Counted from the first letter of the stretch, positions 3,921-11,955 are shown. The stretch: 64,000 bases of DNA from a virus (IMGVR_UViG_3300049435_000061:1-64000); one strand, 5' to 3'. Numbers and translations are program-made. The notes: generated from the letters alone by a model not told the origin.

Positions 3921-3980
3921 ACAAAAAACCCGCCGACCAGTGCACGATTGGAGTAGTGCACCGGCCAGCGGGTTTTGTTG
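3921..3980 (-). terminator. intrinsic terminator of the leftward early operon (possibly bidirectional)
   Basis: 17-bp stem 3929-3972, fully paired on minus strand with 3 G.U pairs, followed by U6. Confidence 0.8.
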
Positions 3981-4007: not shown

Positions 4008-4211
4008 TCACCCTTTCATTCGTTTGTGCACACCGATCAGCCGCGTGATGATTCGGCGCATCTCGTCTTCTATCGGTCCGTCGTCGGCGTAGCCTTCCAG
4101 GAAGTCGCGCACCAGCTTTGACGGCGTGGTGCCCTCCCGTTGGGCTTTCGACGCGGCTTTATGCCAGATGTCGTGGGGCACGCGGACATAGTGTTTTGGC
4201 GTTTCAGCCAC
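4008..4211 (-). CDS. ribbon-helix-helix DNA-binding protein
   Basis: HYVRVPHDIWHKAASKAQREGTTPSKLVRDFL. Confidence 0.7.
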   Translation of the reverse strand: MAETPKHYVRVPHDIWHKAASKAQREGTTPSKLVRDFLEGYADDGPIEDEMRRIITRLIGVHKRMKG

Positions 4212-4554
4212 CGTCGATCACCTCCTGCAAGACATCGAGATAGGGCACGTCGCTCAACTCTTCACCGTCAACCGTGTTGACGCCGACCGGTCCACAAAAG
4301 ATGTCACCAGGCAACAACTGTGCGCCGCCCAATGCGTACCACAGGCGTGTAGCCACATGGTTGGGTGGCAAGCCTTTGAACTTGCCCTCCTCGTCCATGC
4401 TGAATACGAATCGCCTGTCGTCTATCAACGTATACATGGCCTGCACATACCCGCCACCCAGCACCGCCTGGTTGAACGCCGGATATTCTATTGGCACGTC
4501 ACGGATTTCAAACGTACCGTCCGACTGGATGACCAGTGTCTTTGCCGTCTTCAT
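4204..4554 (-). CDS. DUF3846-like protein
   Basis: DEEGKFKGLPPNHVATRLW...GDIFCGPV; start-associated motif upstream. Confidence 0.65.
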   Translation of the reverse strand: MKTAKTLVIQSDGTFEIRDVPIEYPAFNQAVLGGGYVQAMYTLIDDRRFVFSMDEEGKFKGLPPNHVATRLWYALGGAQLLPGDIFCGPVGVNTVDGEELSDVPYLDVLQEVIDGG

Positions 4555-4585
4555 TGTTGTGTCTCCAATCTTGGTTGTTGTTTTT

Positions 4586-4653
4586 GGTCTGAACAGACCA
4601 GGATGCACACCCCAGGAGCAAAGCTCCTGTGATGTGCACCCCTACCTGTTCAG
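4586..4653 (-). repeat. intergenic hairpin element 1 (type A)
   Basis: CTGAACAG...CTGTTCAG long stem; upstream TGA inside CTGAAC; alternative stem GGTCT/AGACC. Confidence 0.9.
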
Positions 4654-5126
4654 GTCACAACGACCGTTGCTTGCGGTGGGTAGGGCCGCAGTGCCTTGGC
4701 GTGCGCAAACACCTGACGCGGGTTGAACATGGTGTTTCTCGCGTACATCGAATGTGGGTCACGCCACGGTCGACCGTTCACTTTGAACCATTCCCGGCCT
4801 TCATGCTCATCGAACCAAAGCGCCATGCCGTGGCAGAAGTCGTAGAAGTCTTCAACTGTTTCCACGAACGTCGGAATCGGTTGATGCATGTGCAATTCCG
4901 TGATCTGGTTGGGGTGGTAGGTGTTGGGCACGTTCAACAGGTAGTCGATGCACGCTTCGCGAACCCGAACGTTTTGCACGTTGAAACCGCAGTAGTAGCT
5001 CGGTGTGTGCACCGACATGGACAGGCCGGGTCGCCACGACACGACGGTCAGCAGCCCGTTGAAGTCTTCGACTGTCATGCCGTCGATGCTGGCTTGCAGG
5101 TCTGGTTGGTTTGATACCGTTTCCAT
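4650..5126 (-). CDS. hypothetical protein
   Basis: SAS-led ORF ending in element 1. Confidence 0.8.
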   Translation of the reverse strand: METVSNQPDLQASIDGMTVEDFNGLLTVVSWRPGLSMSVHTPSYYCGFNVQNVRVREACIDYLLNVPNTYHPNQITELHMHQPIPTFVETVEDFYDFCHGMALWFDEHEGREWFKVNGRPWRDPHSMYARNTMFNPRQVFAHAKALRPYPPQATVVVT

Positions 5127-5178
5127 TTCTCTGTCTCCAATCTTGTTTTACCGCTTCGCGATACGCCGCTAAGCGGCT

Positions 5179-5259
5179 GGTCTAAACAGACCGGGCACCA
5201 CAGTGGCCCAGGTGCGACACATGTCGCACCTGAAACACCGTGGCACCCTACCTGTTCAG
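5179..5259 (-). repeat. hairpin element 2 (type A)
   Basis: CTGAACAG/CTGTTTAG; TGA 5256-5258 in 5' arm. Confidence 0.9.
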
Positions 5260-5648
5260 GTCCTTTCTAGTATTCGTCGTTCCCGTTCCGACATGAGTCG
5301 CGCGTCCGGCACCCACAACCCCTGCTGCCCACGGCACTGGATCGGGCGATCCAGGGGTCGTGGATTGGACAGCAGCCAGTGATACTGCCCACGTGCAGCC
5401 CAGCGGCTTCGGCTGTTGTCGACCACGCCGACCAGGTCGACCACGCCGACAATCACGCCACCTGGCATACCGACCAGCAGGTCATAGCCTCGTTTTTCCA
5501 AGACTCGGCCACCCTCATAGTCGAAGGTTTTCCCGGCGTGAATCGCTAGCGGCCCACGGTATTCTGTGGTCCACGTGCGGTTTTCGACGTCCTTCCCGAA
5601 CGCGATGATGGCATGCGCCCATGGCTGTCTGACGGTGAGGGCATACAT
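5256..5648 (-). CDS. ASCH domain protein
   Basis: ALTVRQPWA...GKDVENRTW...YRGPLAIHAG. Confidence 0.85.
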   Translation of the reverse strand: MYALTVRQPWAHAIIAFGKDVENRTWTTEYRGPLAIHAGKTFDYEGGRVLEKRGYDLLVGMPGGVIVGVVDLVGVVDNSRSRWAARGQYHWLLSNPRPLDRPIQCRGQQGLWVPDARLMSERERRILERT

Positions 5649-5821
5649 TATGCGAACTCCCATCTGCCGCAGCGGTTGCCGTTGACGTCGAAGACACGTC
5701 CGACGCCACTGTCGTCAACGTTGATGTCGTCGGCGACTTTGTGCAGGATGCGTTGCAGCTCACCGATAGGATCATCGGTGAAAGCTGACCCGTGGTCGGT
5801 GTACACGGTGAGAGTGAACAT
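5648..5821 (-). CDS. hypothetical protein
   Basis: Coupled ORF MFTLTVYTD...DVNGNRCGRWEFA. Confidence 0.65.
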   Translation of the reverse strand: MFTLTVYTDHGSAFTDDPIGELQRILHKVADDINVDDSGVGRVFDVNGNRCGRWEFA

Positions 5822-6255
5822 CACACACCCACCAATACAACCTCGTGCCATTGCAGGTCGGCCCACTTGGTGTCCCAGTGCGCTGCCCAGCGCAGAATCC
5901 CTTGCGGATTCAGCACATAGACATATTCGGTATCCCAATACTCATGGGCGTCTTCAGGTGTGGCGTAGTGCTCATTGCCTTGCTCACCGATGTACCGAAC
6001 ACCGAACCCTGCCACTAGCTCAAAGCGGTCAGGGTCGGTGGGATACATCTCACCAGTGGGGTTGCCGTCGAACGATGACCACCCTGCCGGTGTATGTAAC
6101 AAGGTGCTCACTACGCGGTCGATACCATGGGTGGCAATCAACCGTTGCAGTGTTTGCACCTTGCCCCACTGACCATCTGGGTAGCCATCGCTGTGGACAT
6201 AGACCAGTCGGATGCCGGAATCGGTTTCTGCACCGATAAGGCTTCTGGTACTCAT
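5821..6255 (-). CDS. phage hypothetical protein (MSTRS...YVHSDGYP type)
   Basis: SAS-led ORF. Confidence 0.75.
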   Translation of the reverse strand: MSTRSLIGAETDSGIRLVYVHSDGYPDGQWGKVQTLQRLIATHGIDRVVSTLLHTPAGWSSFDGNPTGEMYPTDPDRFELVAGFGVRYIGEQGNEHYATPEDAHEYWDTEYVYVLNPQGILRWAAHWDTKWADLQWHEVVLVGV

Positions 6256-6320
6256 TGTTGTCTCCAATCTTGTTTCATTGGCGCAAGCACCAACTACCGG
6301 CTACGCCGGTCGGATGTTCA

Positions 6321-6385
6321 GGCTGAACAACCGTGGAAGCCAACACCGCTGCTAGGCAGCGGAATTGGCAACCATGACGGTTCAG
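6321..6385 (-). repeat. hairpin element 3 (divergent)
   Basis: CTGAAC/GTTCAG; TGA 6382-6384 in arm; alternative stem GGTT/AGCC. Confidence 0.85.
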
Positions 6386-6483
6386 TGCATTGTCATGCTG
6401 GTCTCAGCGATCAGGAACAGCACAACCACGTACAGAACAACGAGCAGAAACAGCTCGGCTACAACCAGTCCGGTGTAGCCCAC
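6382..6483 (-). CDS. 33-aa single-TM peptide
   Basis: MGYTGLVVAELFLLVVLYVVVLFLIAETSMTMH*; stop falls exactly in element 3. Confidence 0.55.
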   Translation of the reverse strand: MGYTGLVVAELFLLVVLYVVVLFLIAETSMTMH

Positions 6484-7187
6484 TGACGTGGGTCGTCGTC
6501 GCCGAATTTGACCGGCATCACCAGGCCTACGAAGTCGTCGCCGATGGTGACAGTCAACGGCTTCTGGCCATACCCGTATGCACTGTCGTGGGCATAGACG
6601 AAGATCCGGCTGGCCCGGTCGCCGGTGCCTTTCACCTTGCCGAACGATGCGAGATATTCGGCGGTGAAAGCCGTTGCGTGACGCGACTTGGCGAGCACGT
6701 CACGCATGTTTTGCGCGGTTTGTGCCGTCACCTTGGCCGTTGAATCCGGCGCTGGCAGCGGCGGCAACGACACCGACTTGGGGAACAGTCCACGGAACTT
6801 CGGGAAGTCGACGTCGGCGATCCTCGCCGCAGCCAAGCTGCCGTCGTTGAATGTGAACTGCACCGACTTGCCATCCGATGTGACATCGACGGCACGCCAG
6901 CCCTCTTCTGCACGCTTTGTCTTGGCGGATTGGATGAGCCGCTTGACGTCGTCCAGATAGAGTGACATTGACACCTCGTCGCCGTCGAGCACCTTGGCCC
7001 GTGAAACGCCCAACCGGAACCTGTCGGTAGCGATTGCGAGAACCTGGTCTTTGTCGAATTCAAGGCGCACCACGTTGATGCCGGGCAGTGTCACGTCCGT
7101 GGACGCAAACAGGCTCGCGTCGCTGAGGATTCGGTGCAGATCGACCGATTGAACCGTGCCCAACTTAAGGGTGGTTGCTGTACTCAT
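6459..7187 (-). CDS. DNA polymerase III beta-clamp-like protein (shorter than DnaN)
   Basis: FASTDVTLPGINVVRLE...AIATDRFRLG...DFPKFRGLFP...GLVMPVK; 242 aa. Confidence 0.8.
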   Translation of the reverse strand: MSTATTLKLGTVQSVDLHRILSDASLFASTDVTLPGINVVRLEFDKDQVLAIATDRFRLGVSRAKVLDGDEVSMSLYLDDVKRLIQSAKTKRAEEGWRAVDVTSDGKSVQFTFNDGSLAAARIADVDFPKFRGLFPKSVSLPPLPAPDSTAKVTAQTAQNMRDVLAKSRHATAFTAEYLASFGKVKGTGDRASRIFVYAHDSAYGYGQKPLTVTIGDDFVGLVMPVKFGDDDPRQWATPDWL

Positions 7188-7259
7188 TTTTGTGTCTCCA
7201 ATCTTGTTTGACCTGTTCAACACCGGCACTTTGCCGGTGTGACCGGTCGACAGACCGGT

Positions 7260-7319
7260 TGGTTCTGAACAGACCAGGCTACCCACAACTTGTGGTTGTG
7301 GGCACCCCTACCGGTTCAG
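7260..7319 (-). repeat. hairpin element 4 (type A)
   Basis: TGA 7316-7318 in arm. Confidence 0.9.
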
Positions 7320-7726
7320 TCGAGTGTGACGAAGCTTTGCCACGGCAATGGGTCAGCCCATTGGCGCTTGACGCTTTCGGCGTGTTCACGCGCCTCGGAT
7401 TCCGTTGCGAACCAGTAGGCCCGCAGGTCGTGCTGGTCGTCGCCGATCCAGTCGTGCTCGGGTTTGAAATTGTCGACCGGCACCCAACACTGTGGATCGC
7501 TGCTGCTGTCGACGTCGAACGGAACACACAACGTTTGACCGCCAAGCAGTTTGACGGTTTGGCCGGTGATGCGTGCCACGCCGACCTCGATGTCGACTAT
7601 CCGGTCAGGGTCGGGTTCATCGTCGCCCGCACATATCGGGAGAACGCTGACACCCCACCCTTGATGGAAGGTGAAACGCACCGACAGATCCAACCACCGT
7701 TCCGCCGCTTCATATGTGTCACTCAT
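7316..7726 (-). CDS. hypothetical protein
   Basis: SAS-led ORF. Confidence 0.75.
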   Translation of the reverse strand: MSDTYEAAERWLDLSVRFTFHQGWGVSVLPICAGDDEPDPDRIVDIEVGVARITGQTVKLLGGQTLCVPFDVDSSSDPQCWVPVDNFKPEHDWIGDDQHDLRAYWFATESEAREHAESVKRQWADPLPWQSFVTLD

Positions 7727-7747
7727 GTTTGTCTCCAATCCTGTTGT

Positions 7748-7805
7748 GGTCCTAAACAGACCAGGCAACCACCCGCTGCCCCGGGTGGCTCCCCTACCGG
7801 TTTAG
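7748..7805 (-). repeat. hairpin element 5 (type A)
   Basis: CTAAAC/GTTTAG compensatory change; TAA 7802-7804 in arm. Confidence 0.9.
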
Positions 7806-8008
7806 TCGCGGAGTCGTTCTATCTTGTCGTCGCATCGTTGGCAGATGGGTACCTGCCCCAACACGGGGTGGTCGCGCAACCCGTTGGCGGGGTTGGTGCA
7901 CTTGGCGAACCATTCGCACAGTGCGTACCCGTACCCATATCTCCGATGTTGTTCCAGCAGTGCATCGCCGGTTTGTTGCACCCGGTCGTCAATGTTGAGG
8001 CGGCTCAT
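7802..8008 (-). CDS. small Cys-rich protein
   Basis: CEWFAKC...ICQRC; coupled ORF. Confidence 0.7.
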   Translation of the reverse strand: MSRLNIDDRVQQTGDALLEQHRRYGYGYALCEWFAKCTNPANGLRDHPVLGQVPICQRCDDKIERLRD

Positions 8009-8511
8009 TTCGGTGCCACCTCACTGCACTGCCACACCCGCACGTTGACGTCGACATGCACGGCGTTGTGTGCCGTCCAGTGGTCGCGGTGGAAAAACCA
8101 GAACCGGGTGGGACGTGTCTCACCTGTGTCAGTCAACGTGTTGACTGGCACCGAACCGTACAGCCCACCGGAAAAGTTTCCGTTGCCACTGGATTGCAAG
8201 TGCCACGAGCCACCGTTGATCCGGCGTCCACGATCCGATGTGGCATCCGACGTTTGTACGCCGCCACTCGGTGGATGGGATTGTGCGTCGCCGAACCACA
8301 CGTAGCTGATTCGGCGCGTCACGCCATCGGCGAACTCGACCCAATCGCCTTCCAGTGGGAGCGGGTTGGCGAGACGTTTGGTTTGACGTTCATTAAGCAA
8401 CCCAATGTCTTTCGGGTCGGGTGTGAACACCGGGTGCTCACCGCTGAAATTCCAGCAGCGCCACACCTCACTGTCCGCCGAGACGATGCGCGGTACTTCT
8501 GTTGTGTTCAT
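8005..8511 (-). CDS. DUF4121-like protein
   Basis: GDWVEFADG...GNFSGGL...LTDTGETRPTRFWFFHRD; family recalled, not searched. Confidence 0.55.
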   Translation of the reverse strand: MNTTEVPRIVSADSEVWRCWNFSGEHPVFTPDPKDIGLLNERQTKRLANPLPLEGDWVEFADGVTRRISYVWFGDAQSHPPSGGVQTSDATSDRGRRINGGSWHLQSSGNGNFSGGLYGSVPVNTLTDTGETRPTRFWFFHRDHWTAHNAVHVDVNVRVWQCSEVAPK

Positions 8512-8531
8512 TGTGTCTCCAATCTTGTTGT

Positions 8532-8589
8532 GGTCTAAGCAGACCAGGCAACCACCCGCTTACAACGGGTGGCTCCCCTACCGGCTTAG
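8532..8589 (-). repeat. hairpin element 6 (type A)
   Basis: CTAAGC/GCTTAG compensatory change; TAA 8586-8588 in arm. Confidence 0.9.
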
Positions 8590-8834
8590 TCCCTTTCGGC
8601 GGTGATTGCTTTGGCCGGGACTATCACTGTTGTGGTGTTGTCGTCGTCGGCGAGTACGGCGAACGCGCGGTGAAATTCCCGCGTGGTGAGTCGCACCACA
8701 CGCCCGAATCGGCGTGGTTCGCCGTCGAACTGCCACGACACCCGGTCACCACGTTCGATACGGTCTGTTGCATCGAGTATGGTCTTGCTTGGCGGGCAGG
8801 CAATGTCCAGCGGCTTGTGCTGTTTGATACCCAT
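8586..8834 (-). CDS. hypothetical protein
   Basis: SAS-led ORF. Confidence 0.7.
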   Translation of the reverse strand: MGIKQHKPLDIACPPSKTILDATDRIERGDRVSWQFDGEPRRFGRVVRLTTREFHRAFAVLADDDNTTTVIVPAKAITAERD

Positions 8835-8856
8835 TTCTTGTCTCCAATCTTGTTAC

Positions 8857-8918
8857 GGTGTTTGAACACACCAGCCCCCACACAGGCACGGATGTCTGTG
8901 TGGGAGAGTCATGTTCAA
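8857..8918 (-). repeat. hairpin element 7 (type B)
   Basis: TTGAAC/GTTCAA; TGA 8915-8917; alternative stem GGTGT/ACACC. Confidence 0.9.
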
Positions 8919-9250
8919 CTGATGTAGGTTCCGACGACGACACTGTCATAGTCGTATCGGGTTTCGACACGGCCACGGTCGTCTTCGATAACAGGCCAAC
9001 GGAACACAACACCGGAATAGAACGAATCCGACTGGTACAAATCCCAGTCGGTGATCCCGATGTTGCGTGCCAGTCCATCGCAGTCGGTGGTGTCATACCA
9101 GCGATTGCGATACTGGACGAAACGCGGTGAGAATTCATCCTCGCCGGTCACGTAGTCGAAGTCTTTGCGAGCCTCAACCGGCAGCTGGTCAAACGCCACC
9201 AGCTCACGCCAGTGGTAGTTGGTCGTGATTTTCACGTGCTTGTCCATCAT
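8915..9250 (-). CDS. hypothetical protein
   Basis: ORF ending in element 7. Confidence 0.75.
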   Translation of the reverse strand: MMDKHVKITTNYHWRELVAFDQLPVEARKDFDYVTGEDEFSPRFVQYRNRWYDTTDCDGLARNIGITDWDLYQSDSFYSGVVFRWPVIEDDRGRVETRYDYDSVVVGTYIS

Positions 9251-9523
9251 TCACTTCCCAACGGGGTATTCTTCGACAAGTTTGCGCAGGCCGAACATGC
9301 TGTCAGACGGCAGTTCCCGCACATAATGTGTGAGCACGGATGCCTGACCGACATCCTGCCCGTCAATCAGCACCCGCGCCGTCTTGTGGTCGCGGGCACC
9401 GGCAGGCATTAGCTCTGCGCGACCTTCGCGGGCCGCTGTGAGCACCATGCGGCGCGCTGCCGAATAGTTGTGCACGGCCAGCGCGTCACGGACCTGCGCG
9501 ACGAGGGTGATTGTGTTACCCAT
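9251..9523 (-). CDS. hypothetical protein
   Basis: SAS-led ORF. Confidence 0.7.
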   Translation of the reverse strand: MGNTITLVAQVRDALAVHNYSAARRMVLTAAREGRAELMPAGARDHKTARVLIDGQDVGQASVLTHYVRELPSDSMFGLRKLVEEYPVGK

Positions 9524-9566
9524 TGTTGTCTCCAATCTTGTTGGCGCGCAGCGCGTTGCTACGCAA

Positions 9567-9629
9567 TGGTGCTGAACACACCAGCAGCTCACACGGACGC
9601 GAACGCCCGTGTGGCTGAGTCATGTTCAG
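9567..9629 (-). repeat. hairpin element 8 (type B)
   Basis: TGA 9626-9628 in arm; alternative stem TGGTG/CACCA. Confidence 0.9.
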
Positions 9630-10549
9630 TTGTAGTCGGGTTCCAGCTGGTCGTAGTGCGACTTGCGTCCCGCCACCAGAATTTTGTCGGTGACACTGAA
9701 GATGGATCGCACCACGTTGTCGTTGACGGCCAAGTTGCCGTCATCGTCCAGGTAGTCGACGGTACTGCCTTTCAACCACCCTTGGATGTACGCACGGCTG
9801 CTGGCGGCGTCGAACTGTTCGACGTCCAGTTCTGTGCAGACCAGCAGTGCGACGGCCTCGGCTTGGAACTCCCGAATGTCGCGCGGGTGCTCTTTTTTGG
9901 TGCCGTGGTCTTCGGTGTGGCCCAACAGAATGTGCGCCCACTCATGGATCATTGTTTTGAACGGCGACACAGCTACCGGGTTGAGCGCAAACTTGCGGTC
10001 AACACTGTAGCCTTGCACGTTGCCGTCGTGATGGCTGAACCGGGTTTCGGTCACATCCAACACGTCGGCGGCCTGCTTGCGATCCCAGCTGGGCAACGTC
10101 GGCATCGGCAGATCGGGTCCTTCCGTTTGGAACAGCTGGAACACTGAGGCTTTCGGGTAGAACCCGACAACCTTCATCTCTGCTTTACCGTTGGCTTTGA
10201 GGATCGTGTTGCCGTCGTGGTCACGTAGCGGCGCGAACTGCGGGTGGTTCACCCACAGCGCGGAGCCGGGTCCGCTGATCACTTTGCGGTCCAACGACTG
10301 CCATTTGCGGAACGTTGCTATCGGCTCAAACTGCCCGGTCTGCATAAGCACCAGGAGAATGTTGAGCATCGAGTAGCGGTGAAACCGGTTGTAGCAGTTC
10401 GACAACCTTCCCGGCGCTGTCAGCGCGAACTGAAGAACCGCGACCAGATCAATCTTGCCGTTGTCGTGCAACGGCAGGTCAGACTTGGTGACGTCGCGGC
10501 GACCTTTGCTCGGCTTGGACGCCTTGCGGGTTTGGGTTGCTGTTGTCAT
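9626..10549 (-). CDS. ArdC-like ssDNA-binding / zincin anti-restriction protein
   Basis: FHRYSMLNILLV...ATFRKWQSLDRKV N-domain; HEWAH and EFQAEAVA zincin motifs. Confidence 0.75.
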   Translation of the reverse strand: MTTATQTRKASKPSKGRRDVTKSDLPLHDNGKIDLVAVLQFALTAPGRLSNCYNRFHRYSMLNILLVLMQTGQFEPIATFRKWQSLDRKVISGPGSALWVNHPQFAPLRDHDGNTILKANGKAEMKVVGFYPKASVFQLFQTEGPDLPMPTLPSWDRKQAADVLDVTETRFSHHDGNVQGYSVDRKFALNPVAVSPFKTMIHEWAHILLGHTEDHGTKKEHPRDIREFQAEAVALLVCTELDVEQFDAASSRAYIQGWLKGSTVDYLDDDGNLAVNDNVVRSIFSVTDKILVAGRKSHYDQLEPDYN

Positions 10550-10571
10550 TTTGAGTCTCCAATCTTGTTTT

Positions 10572-10634
10572 TGGTGCTGAACACACCAGCAGCACACACA
10601 GGCACGGATGTCTGTGTGGCTGAGTCATGTTCAG
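10572..10634 (-). repeat. hairpin element 9 (type B)
   Basis: TAA 10635-10637 abuts CTGAAC; upper stem nearly identical to element 7. Confidence 0.9.
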
Positions 10635-10967
10635 TTAGTCGCCAATGGCGTAGCCGTCGATGCCGCCGCAGCGACTACATTCGACGGCGTCATGCCAGGC
10701 GTGTTGCCGATATACGGCGTCGTCTTCACTGTGGCAGTAACGGCAGCGCACTTTCGGCGAAACATAGTGCGCCGCTTTAGGTATTGTCGGGTCAGCGTGA
10801 AGCCATTCACCCATGCCGTATGATCCACCGTTCGGATCGTAAACGAGCTGTTCATCACATGTCTTGCAGTGGTGAACGTCTGGCAGTATTTCAACGTCAA
10901 TGGTGGGAAGTGTGCAGTAGTTGCCTCGTTTGGCATCCGCAAACATCTCTAACGTTGTGCTCATCAT
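10635..10967 (-). CDS. Cys-rich hypothetical protein
   Basis: Three CxxC pairs; SAS-led. Confidence 0.75.
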   Translation of the reverse strand: MMSTTLEMFADAKRGNYCTLPTIDVEILPDVHHCKTCDEQLVYDPNGGSYGMGEWLHADPTIPKAAHYVSPKVRCRYCHSEDDAVYRQHAWHDAVECSRCGGIDGYAIGD

Positions 10968-10983
10968 TGTCTCCAATCTTGGT

Positions 10984-11082
10984 TGGGCTGAGATACCCAG
11001 TGGCGCAGTCAGACGCAACTGTAAGCGTCGCCAGGGGCGGCGAGATGCGCTGTTGGCGTCTGACTGGCCAAGTGTTTCTCAG
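10984..11082 (-). repeat. hairpin element 10 (divergent, long)
   Basis: CTGAGA/TCTCAG base, CAGTCAGACGC/GCGTCTGACTG stem; alternative stem TGGGT/GCCCA; TGA 11084-11086 adjacent. Confidence 0.75.
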
Positions 11083-11457: not shown

Positions 11458-11477
11458 TGCGATTCTCCAATCTTGTT

Positions 11478-11955
11478 GCTAGTGAAAAGCGCACTAGCAC
11501 GCGGTCGAGGACATCTATAAATCCCCGTGAAACCCAACCAGTCGGTGAGACTGGTTGGGAATCATGGAAATTCAAGATTAGAGGAGACTATTCTCAACTA
11601 TTACAGCTCACTACAATTTCACGGTGCGGGTCGCGGGACACAAGTCTCAGATAAATGTTCTCGCAGAAGCTTCATCAGCATGACACGCACTTAAGTCGGA
11701 TACTCTCGTGGGCTGCATTCGTCTCTATAGGGCATATGTTCATTGCGCGTAGACGGTTTCGGTCACTCTTGAGTGGTCGCTGGTCGTCTCGGTCGTTGGG
11801 CGCGGCTTCGGGCTTTGCACTGATCAACGGTGGTCGTAGCGCGTCTCATATGTCTGTGTCTCTCGGGCTGGTTCACGGAGTGGGTTCAGGCGCGGAAGCG
11901 GCTGCTGGTCAAACGGTGTCCCTGGGACTTGTTTTGATCGGTATGTACTTGTACA
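11478..11955 (-). ncRNA. candidate structured 5' leader or sRNA
   Basis: No credible ORF; several hairpins; anti-SAS segment at 11573-11588; five GAGAC copies. Confidence 0.45.

Follow-up and report, generated by a model that had tools for sequence, protein, structure and literature searches.

A conserved second fold overlaps the intercistronic RNA hairpins of a putative actinobacteriophage operon

Ten intergenic elements (E1-E10), all built on one common plan, reside on the minus strand between positions 4585 and 11082 of a 64,000-nt stretch of viral DNA (hereafter the window), which corresponds to the first 64 kb of the 74.5-kb IMG/VR record IMGVR_UViG_3300049435_000061 (~59% G+C). Each element includes, in this order, a stop codon, a long hairpin (H1), a spacer of 7-59 nt, a conserved start motif and an ATG. 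The last 10-13 nt of the 3' arm of H1 can alternatively pair with the 3-6 nt found immediately downstream, and form a second, small hairpin (H2). The comparison of elements from four phages confirms that H2 is real, and present beyond the window phage. H2 and the lower stem of H1 are mutually exclusive because they share bases, though the upper stem of H1 may persist when H2 is formed.

Two overlapping folds

H1 spans 54-95 nt in the ten window copies, with folding energies ranging from -28 to -58 kcal/mol, and its arms form 20-37 pairs. A lower domain of 9-12 nt is followed by a small internal loop and by an upper stem of at least 11 pairs; the internal loop, set 9-12 nt above the foot, is conserved in all element families. 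The analyses were carried out on 48 hand-curated elements (40 unique) from the window phage, a further IMG/VR phage (L076), and the mycobacteriophages Rey and MrMagoo. RNAalifold identifies 22 consensus pairs in a 38-element alignment, and compensatory changes are found at 20 of the 22. Folding is better in the sense than in the antisense orientation in 40 of 44 elements, mean energies being -35.3 and -26.4 kcal/mol, respectively, and 162 G.U pairs occur across the H1 set. Because of these G.U pairs, and of the ~9 kcal/mol greater stability in the sense orientation, H1 is an RNA structure of the sense (coding) strand.

To assess H2, the terminal 14 nt of the 3' arm and the 10 nt following it were folded as one sequence. 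A hairpin spanning the junction is predicted in 10 of 10 window elements, which agrees with the original prediction that the 3' arm of every element can pair with the bases just downstream. The stems listed there are correct for E1, E2 and E5-E10, but the GGUU/AGCC pairing of E3 is marginal, and the stem of E4 needs a bulge. Single-sequence z-scores are modest (-0.4 to -2.6 for the window elements), and the case for H2 therefore rests on the comparison between elements. The mean H2 energy is -6.97 kcal/mol in the 48 elements. Permuting the downstream flanks between elements brings the mean to -4.42 (sd 0.31), and in 20,000 permutations the observed value was never attained. The mirror control, in which the 5' arm is folded with the bases upstream, yields -2.74 kcal/mol, the arm by itself -0.56.

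The claim that the small-hairpin pairing covaries also holds. When a single H2 register is read on the MAFFT alignment, built with no fitting to H2, 77.5% of the cells are paired, versus 68.9 +/- 1.5 in shuffles (0 of 500 reach 77.5%). With slid registers the share is 27-52%, and covariation scores 0.243 versus 0.153. Stem sequences fall into about 11 classes overall, at least three of which are found within the window phage. The classes found overall include UGGUCU/AGACCA, UGGUGU/GCACCA, UGGGU/GCCCA, GAUGG/CCAUC, UGGUUC/GAACCA, UGCUG/CAGCA, UGCUCU/GGAGCA, CUGUAC/GUACAG and UGUGC/GCACA. In E2, E4 and E8, where H1 and the start motif are 32-59 nt apart, the ACC-type flank goes with H1, not with the start motif. 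Out of the sample, in a Cluster M-like genome (L158), H2 was found in 13 of 15 matches to the covariance model described below, and the mean over all 15 is -6.2 kcal/mol, versus -2.2 for the mirror control.

Competition between the folds can be followed base by base. The H2 stem recruits the GG on the 3' side of the internal loop and both ends of the 3' strand of the lower stem. What is left of that strand makes up the H2 loop, and the 3-6 bases following H1 complete the stem. The notion that the two folds compete is hence sound, and the linker of 0-2 nt mentioned in that context is loose wording for the sharing of lower-stem bases. Type A elements have two H2 base pairs that involve no base paired in H1, and therefore H2 can be cleanly broken and restored in them. 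In the free sequence the full H1 is predicted in 47 of the 48 elements, E3 being the exception; when the first 12 nt are forced to be single-stranded, the upper part of H1 together with H2 is predicted in 48 of 48. Moving from H1 to upper H1 plus H2 costs on average 5.9 kcal/mol (range 1.6-9.9).

The stop codon in the foot

The stop of the upstream gene is located at foot positions 2-4 in nine of the ten window copies, the exception being E9. Whether the UGA in the foot of E3 works as a stop is uncertain, because it would end only a 33-codon hydrophobic open reading frame (ORF). Over the 48 elements the stop resides in the foot in 31, up to 6 nt upstream in 5, and 7-12 nt upstream in 9, while 3 have no assignable stop. 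The lower domain measures 9-12 nt in 42 of the 48 elements; among 30 elements whose foot contains the stop, 22 have the upper helix 8-11 nt away from the first base of that stop. A ribosome with a stop codon in the A site must keep about that length of mRNA unwound. These distances support a model in which a terminating ribosome would unwind the lower stem and come to a halt at the upper one, H2 being the fold predicted for that situation.

The coordinates of the two hairpins in the window are given below.

E1: H1 at 4589-4653, minus, 65 nt, -46.3 kcal/mol, UGA of the upstream ORF 4650-5126 at foot positions 2-4; H2 at 4585-4600, minus, UGGUCU-GUUC-AGACCA, -7.3 kcal/mol
E2: H1 at 5182-5259, minus, 78 nt, -57.5 kcal/mol, UGA stop in the foot; H2 at 5179-5192, minus, GGUCU-GUUU-AGACC, -6.2 kcal/mol
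E3: H1 at 6323-6385, minus, 63 nt, foot UGA that would close only the 33-codon ORF 6382-6483; alternative hairpin at 6315-6329, minus, UGUUCA-GCC-UGAACA with a downstream copy of the foot, -4.1 kcal/mol
E4: H1 at 7265-7319, minus, 55 nt, UGA stop in the foot; H2 at 7255-7277, minus, bulged and weak, -4.9 kcal/mol
E5: H1 at 7752-7805, minus, 54 nt, UAA stop in the foot; H2 at 7747-7763, minus, UGGUCU-GUUUA-GGACCA, -7.5 kcal/mol, one extra loop base relative to the stem of E1, E2 and E6
E6: H1 at 8535-8589, minus, 55 nt, UAA stop in the foot; H2 at 8531-8546, minus, UGGUCU-GCUU-AGACCA, -7.0 kcal/mol
E7: H1 at 8862-8918, minus, 57 nt, UGA stop in the foot; H2 at 8856-8873, minus, UGGUGU-GUUCAA-ACACCG, -7.6 kcal/mol
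E8: H1 at 9572-9629, minus, 58 nt, UGA stop in the foot; H2 at 9563-9585, minus, core UGGUGU-GUUCA-GCACCA, -9.2 kcal/mol
E9: H1 at 10577-10634, minus, 58 nt, real UAA stop (10635-10637) directly 5' of the foot, foot UGA unused; H2 at 10572-10588, minus, UGGUGU-GUUCA-GCACCA, -7.9 kcal/mol
E10: H1 at 10988-11082, minus, 95 nt, -49.6 kcal/mol, UGA stop in the foot; H2 at 10984-10999, minus, UGGGU-AUCUCA-GCCCA, -6.8 kcal/mol

E4 has in addition a long-range alternative, in which 11 bp are formed with a copy of the foot found just upstream of the start motif. Between H1 and the start motif, extra small hairpins are located in E4 (7200-7264, minus) and E3 (6272-6322, minus), and the same intervals of E4 and E3 contain UUGAACAGGUC and CUGAACAU, which are stray copies of the foot. 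Both the extra hairpins and the foot copies look like scars of recombination between elements.

The start motif and its relation to the arms

The start motif A(A/C)CA(A/G)GAUUGGAGAC is present in ten copies on the minus strand (4561-10983), and in each case an ATG follows after 5-7 nt. Matches of 12 nt to AAGATTGGAGAC (AGGATTGGAGAC in E5) start at 4561, 5133, 6260, 7194, 7731, 8515, 8840, 9528, 10555 and 10969 on the same strand. An eleventh copy, without H1, is found at 11463-11477 (minus), at the start of the operon. Conservation of the motif extends well past what a Shine-Dalgarno (SD) sequence needs. In compact copies, H1 and the SD motif are separated by 7-16 nt, and the SD is unpaired in both of the predicted states.

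In some relatives the 5' arm of H1 resembles the start motif of the same phage. In L076 the arm AGAUAGGAGACG, found in several elements (L076:5700-8760), is a near copy of the motif AGAUUGGAGACG, and in Rey (L093) the arm ACGGAGAAGGG is a near copy of ACGGAGAAGGGAA. The 3' arms are therefore partly complementary to the motif. The hairpins may derive from an inverted duplication of the start region; alternatively, they may act as decoys. Duplexes between 3' arms and their own motifs have a mean energy of -9.0 kcal/mol, versus -8.0 for shuffled arms; in Cluster M the values are -10.9 and -9.5. The commonest arms (type B) form weak duplexes, of -5.4 kcal/mol. The hypothesis that the 3' arm of H1 is a dedicated strand directed against the SD motif was rejected as a general rule, the duplexes being barely above shuffles. 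With the foot blocked, the 3' arm of E2 is predicted to pair with AACAAGAU, a part of the motif.

Sequences complementary to the motif are found also outside the elements. The untranslated leader preceding the first start motif (11573-11588, minus) contains GUCUCCUCUAAUCUUG, an anti-motif with a 3-nt bulge, and a similar stretch, GUCUCCUUUCCAAUCUU, is located in L076 at the equivalent site upstream of the motif at L076:1850.

Relatives

An exact motif scan of IMG/VR identified one further phage, L076, which carries at least 14 elements. A weak blastn match led to the right arm of the Cluster M mycobacteriophage Rey, whose intergenic regions contain clearly homologous hairpins, with the start motif of Rey itself downstream of them; MrMagoo is organized alike. 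Both phages infect M. smegmatis mc2 155. Aligned jointly with MAFFT, 38 elements share a consensus (alignment A1). The covariance model derived from this alignment (R1) scores its members at 39.7-70 bits, antisense sequences at 32 bits at most. In the window R1 matches the array only, and recognizes 8 of the 10 elements at 39.7-69 bits, missing the divergent E3 and E10; the elements of Rey and MrMagoo score 44-70 bits.

Other searches delimit the distribution of the elements. A gapped type A pattern scan of IMG/VR picked up Cluster M genomes only; a scan of the same database with a 5'-arm 15-mer gave nothing new, and a search for related loci with two of the array proteins revealed no relatives. 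In megablast and blastn searches of GenBank phages the whole array gave short coding matches, and single elements only chance-level matches (E 3-10), hence BLAST is too insensitive for these hairpins. Phage Jeon, picked up by a blastn match, has a different intergenic architecture and no R1 match in the region searched. No Rfam family is matched at gathering scores anywhere in the window. In the literature searched, no relevant study of such elements by RNA-seq or on RNase III was found. Of the sequencing runs, none of RNA is listed as containing the window phage, the single match being the DNA sample from which it probably derives.

Two family hairpins lie in tandem, with no annotated ORF in between (L156:811-876 and L093:21-90, Rey). 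The second hairpin of the tandem, which has no assignable upstream stop, forms the H2 with the longest stem of the Rey/MrMagoo set (8 bp, -8.9 kcal/mol).

Comparison with known systems

The RNase III sites of phage T7 are intercistronic hairpins in early polycistronic mRNA, in which an internal loop separates a lower from an upper stem. The predicted folds of the window elements have the same architecture, with double-stranded RNA of at least ~20 bp, three parts and an intercistronic location. To our knowledge, T7 sites carry neither a stop codon in the foot nor a conserved alternative hairpin at the 3' side. The PeSL (promoter-early stem-loop) cassettes of T4-type phages are repeated units located among small accessory early genes, and are thought to promote shuffling. 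The window elements resemble them as repeated intergenic stem-loop units of a small accessory early-gene region, but their conserved part is a ribosome-binding motif. An identity with PeSL was rejected, since PeSL cassettes contain a promoter, and the 7-16 nt between H1 and SD in compact copies leave no room for it. In the translational coupling of MS2 and other RNA phages, as in leader-peptide attenuators, a ribosome displaces one strand of a helix, and the other pairing frees or hides a start or a terminator. The exchange of pairings proposed for the window elements, driven by a ribosome on one frame, is of this kind, but in most window-type copies neither state covers the SD.

Further identities were considered and discarded. 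H1 is not an intrinsic terminator, because it is not followed by a U-tract, present instead at the operon terminator (3929-3972); its flanks are A/C-rich (ACCAAAAAC, CACCAAAAAC, ACCACAAC). When core sites are compared with integron attC, the feet CUGAAC/GUUCAG, CUGAGU/ACUCAG and CUAGAC/GUCUAG do not fit RYYYAAC/GTTRRRY, and the structure is specific to the sense RNA. A selenocysteine insertion sequence (SECIS) or a read-through stimulator was rejected, as stops include UAA and UAG, and the frame of E6 closes again inside H1. A miniature inverted-repeat transposable element (MITE) was likewise dismissed, a GACC target-site duplication being found in E1 and E2 only.

The closest known repeats are those of Cluster M phages, where PMC7953290, citing Pope et al. 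2014 (J Virol 88:2461), describes the repeats CR3/CR4 with upstream stem-loops. In the window, as in Rey and MrMagoo, repeats reside among many small same-strand genes near one end of the genome, and a stem-loop is located directly upstream of a highly conserved start-proximal motif. Both sequence and structure show the Cluster M stem-loops to be homologues of the window ones, and H2 is found in Cluster M too. In contrast, the start motif is approximately CACACGGAGAAGGGAA in Rey and AACAAGAUUGGAGAC in the window; the CR3/CR4 motif is hence absent from the window, which has AACAAGATTGGAGAC where Rey has CACACGGAGAAGGGAA-like sequences. The backbone of the window phage is also unrelated, the nearest terminases being those of M. 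abscessus prophages and Gordonia phages. PMC7953290 mentions only stem-loops, and an overlapping second fold was not found described, the comparison not extending to the primary Cluster M paper.

A broader likeness links the elements to the start-associated sequences (SAS) and extended SAS (ESAS) of Cluster K mycobacteriophages (PMC3203893) and Cluster EF Microbacterium phages (PMC7302621), whose function is stated to be unknown. There, as in the window, an asymmetric motif conserved beyond need lies over the SD, few bases before selected starts; imperfect inverted repeats precede about half of the copies. The 5' arms of window-type elements, GGUAGGGGAGCC and GAUAGGAG, resemble the Cluster K motif GGGAUAGGAGCCC. 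The 13-bp Cluster K motif GGGATAGGAGCCC, which lies 3-8 bp before the start, is analogous in position to the window motif, but different in sequence. ESAS are described as 17-bp imperfect inverted repeats with spacers of 4-13 bp, and the authors found little support for an mRNA hairpin (PMC3203893); window-type arms, in contrast, form 20-37 pairs and co-vary strongly, at 20 of 22 pairs. Neither a stop in the foot nor a second fold is reported in the parts of these accounts that were available (PMC3203893, PMC7302621). The association of a hairpin with a start-motif repeat is thus already a known kind of arrangement, of which the window is a member with a different start motif. Three points appear to be new: the evidence that the hairpins are sense-strand RNA structures that co-vary, the stop built into the foot, and the conserved, mutually exclusive second hairpin.

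Possible roles of the second fold

The explanation we prefer, and hold tentatively, is that H2 is a strand-capture or back-up hairpin for the strand displaced by the terminating ribosome. According to this model, the elements would be modular intercistronic RNA units of one leftward early operon, homologous to the stem-loop and CR3/CR4 units of Cluster M. In the ground state H1 would be fully formed, and its 9-12-nt lower stem would bury the upstream stop. Once the 5' strand of the lower stem is removed, most likely by a ribosome terminating on the foot stop, the released 3' strand and the 3-6 bases following it would snap into H2, leaving the upper stem intact. H2 would keep the displaced U/G-rich strand structured, and thereby away from nucleases and from pairing with the nearby SD. 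Its loop would expose the complement of the foot, allowing H1 to re-form quickly after the ribosome leaves. The benefit would plausibly be protection and fast reset, rather than on/off control of the next gene.

The original prediction had been that a ribosome terminating in the 5' arm opens the basal stem and favours the small hairpin, coupling upstream translation to the next unit. This view is partly supported. In its favour, H1 wins in the free sequence, H2 is predicted in 48 of 48 elements once the foot is blocked, and 9 of 10 window copies have the stop within the foot. Several points weigh against the strand-capture model, the first two of them also against this view. H2 of normal strength is kept in 12 of the 48 elements despite a stop 7-12 nt upstream or unassignable; many of the 12 nearly duplicate elements whose foot contains the stop, and are therefore weak evidence either way. 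E3 is predicted to prefer its alternative fold even with the foot free, thus with no need of a ribosome. H2 is nearly all Watson-Crick and has no strand bias of its own. All the energies reported are nearest-neighbour predictions. As to the coupling to the next unit, the SD of compact copies is sequestered in neither of the predicted states.

A second explanation is possible, if not probable, by analogy with T7. H1 would be a nuclease processing site, recognized in the manner of T7 RNase III sites, and H2 the 5'-terminal hairpin left after the cut. Cleavage at or near the 3' side of the internal loop would separate the cistrons, the lower-stem 3' strand would become the new 5' end, and H2 would shield the downstream mRNA from 5'-end-dependent decay by actinobacterial RNase J or RNase E. 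That the small hairpin caps the new 5' end after cleavage had been put forward as a second idea in the prediction, and the anatomy fits it equally well. The division into lower stem, internal loop and upper stem is found in all families, and H2 starts at the 3' side of the internal loop. H2 is kept where the stop is off the foot, and in the second tandem hairpin of Rey. Elements are located solely between cistrons, and the first start motif of the operon lacks one. Processing, however, leaves unexplained the regular placement of the stop at foot positions 2-4, and after the cut the lower stem would still join the two products until melted.

A true regulatory switch, in which termination upstream flips H1 to H2 and sets the translation or the stability of the next gene, is unlikely. 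The freed 3' arm may here pair also with the 5' half of the start motif. The similarity of 5' arms to their own start motif in L076 and Rey, the blocked-foot fold of E2 and the excess conservation of the motif all point in this direction. Yet arm-motif duplexes barely beat those of shuffled arms and are weak in type B, and the SD of compact copies is unpaired in both states.

It is very improbable that H2 is a DNA-level feature or a by-product, whether a protein-binding palindrome, a scar of cassette shuffling, or the chance result of G/U arms lying beside C/A flanks: though a nearly all Watson-Crick H2 would form on either strand, the stray foot copies of E3 and E4 resemble recombination scars, and array genes are mosaic and shared with other mycobacteriophages, the variety of stems in the window phage and overall argues against a single sequence-specific binding protein, the permutation, slid-register and mirror controls exclude composition as the sole cause, and the overlapped H1 is clearly a sense-strand RNA structure.

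A wider view is that H1 and H2 together make a translation-sensing, self-resetting switch, used as a portable cassette junction in actinobacteriophage early operons, where termination sets the processing, stability or initiation of the next cistron. We regard it as rather doubtful. If true, it would provide a mechanism for the long-unexplained repeats of the SAS/ESAS and CR type. Start-associated motifs with upstream inverted repeats have been catalogued since 2011 in clusters K, M and EF, their function being stated as unknown. For the Cluster M type and two metagenomic relatives, what was a sequence curiosity becomes a concrete two-state model. Were the exchange driven by ribosomes, the elements would represent a compact natural device to insulate, or to couple, cistrons.

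Operon and gene content

The large terminase of the window phage is 67% identical to those of M. abscessus prophages, and ~60% identical to those of Gordonia phages. On the ground of this similarity, the source of the window, a soil metagenome sequence, is classified as an actinobacteriophage. The minus strand encodes the genes of the 4.2-11.5 kb interval, and the elements are read on its RNA. The block is taken to consist of accessory early genes. Annotated features of the region are the following.

3929-3972, minus: operon terminator, a strong stem followed by a U-rich tract (six U, G, two U)
4204-4554, minus: DUF3846 protein, by family match
6459-7187, minus: protein with a match to the DnaN central domain; the best PHROG family is annotated as RusA-like resolvase
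9626-10549, minus: ArdC-like anti-restriction protein, with an N-terminal ArdC domain and a weak zincin-like match

The remaining array proteins tested have no Pfam match. Two genes, at 7812-7924 and 10636-10749, are 75-79% identical in nucleotide sequence, over ~110 nt, to genes of Rey and MrMagoo (gp158, gp161), D12, Jeon and Taptic, and cassette genes are therefore mosaic across unrelated phages.

The candidate 33-codon ORF at 6382-6483 (minus) encodes a very hydrophobic product, has a GTG start, and overlaps the end of a 275-aa gene. It is shorter than the usual ORF cut-offs, and its own UGA is the stop within the E3 foot. The loop of the operon terminator holds CUCCAAUC, the exact complement of GAUUGGAG of the start motif.

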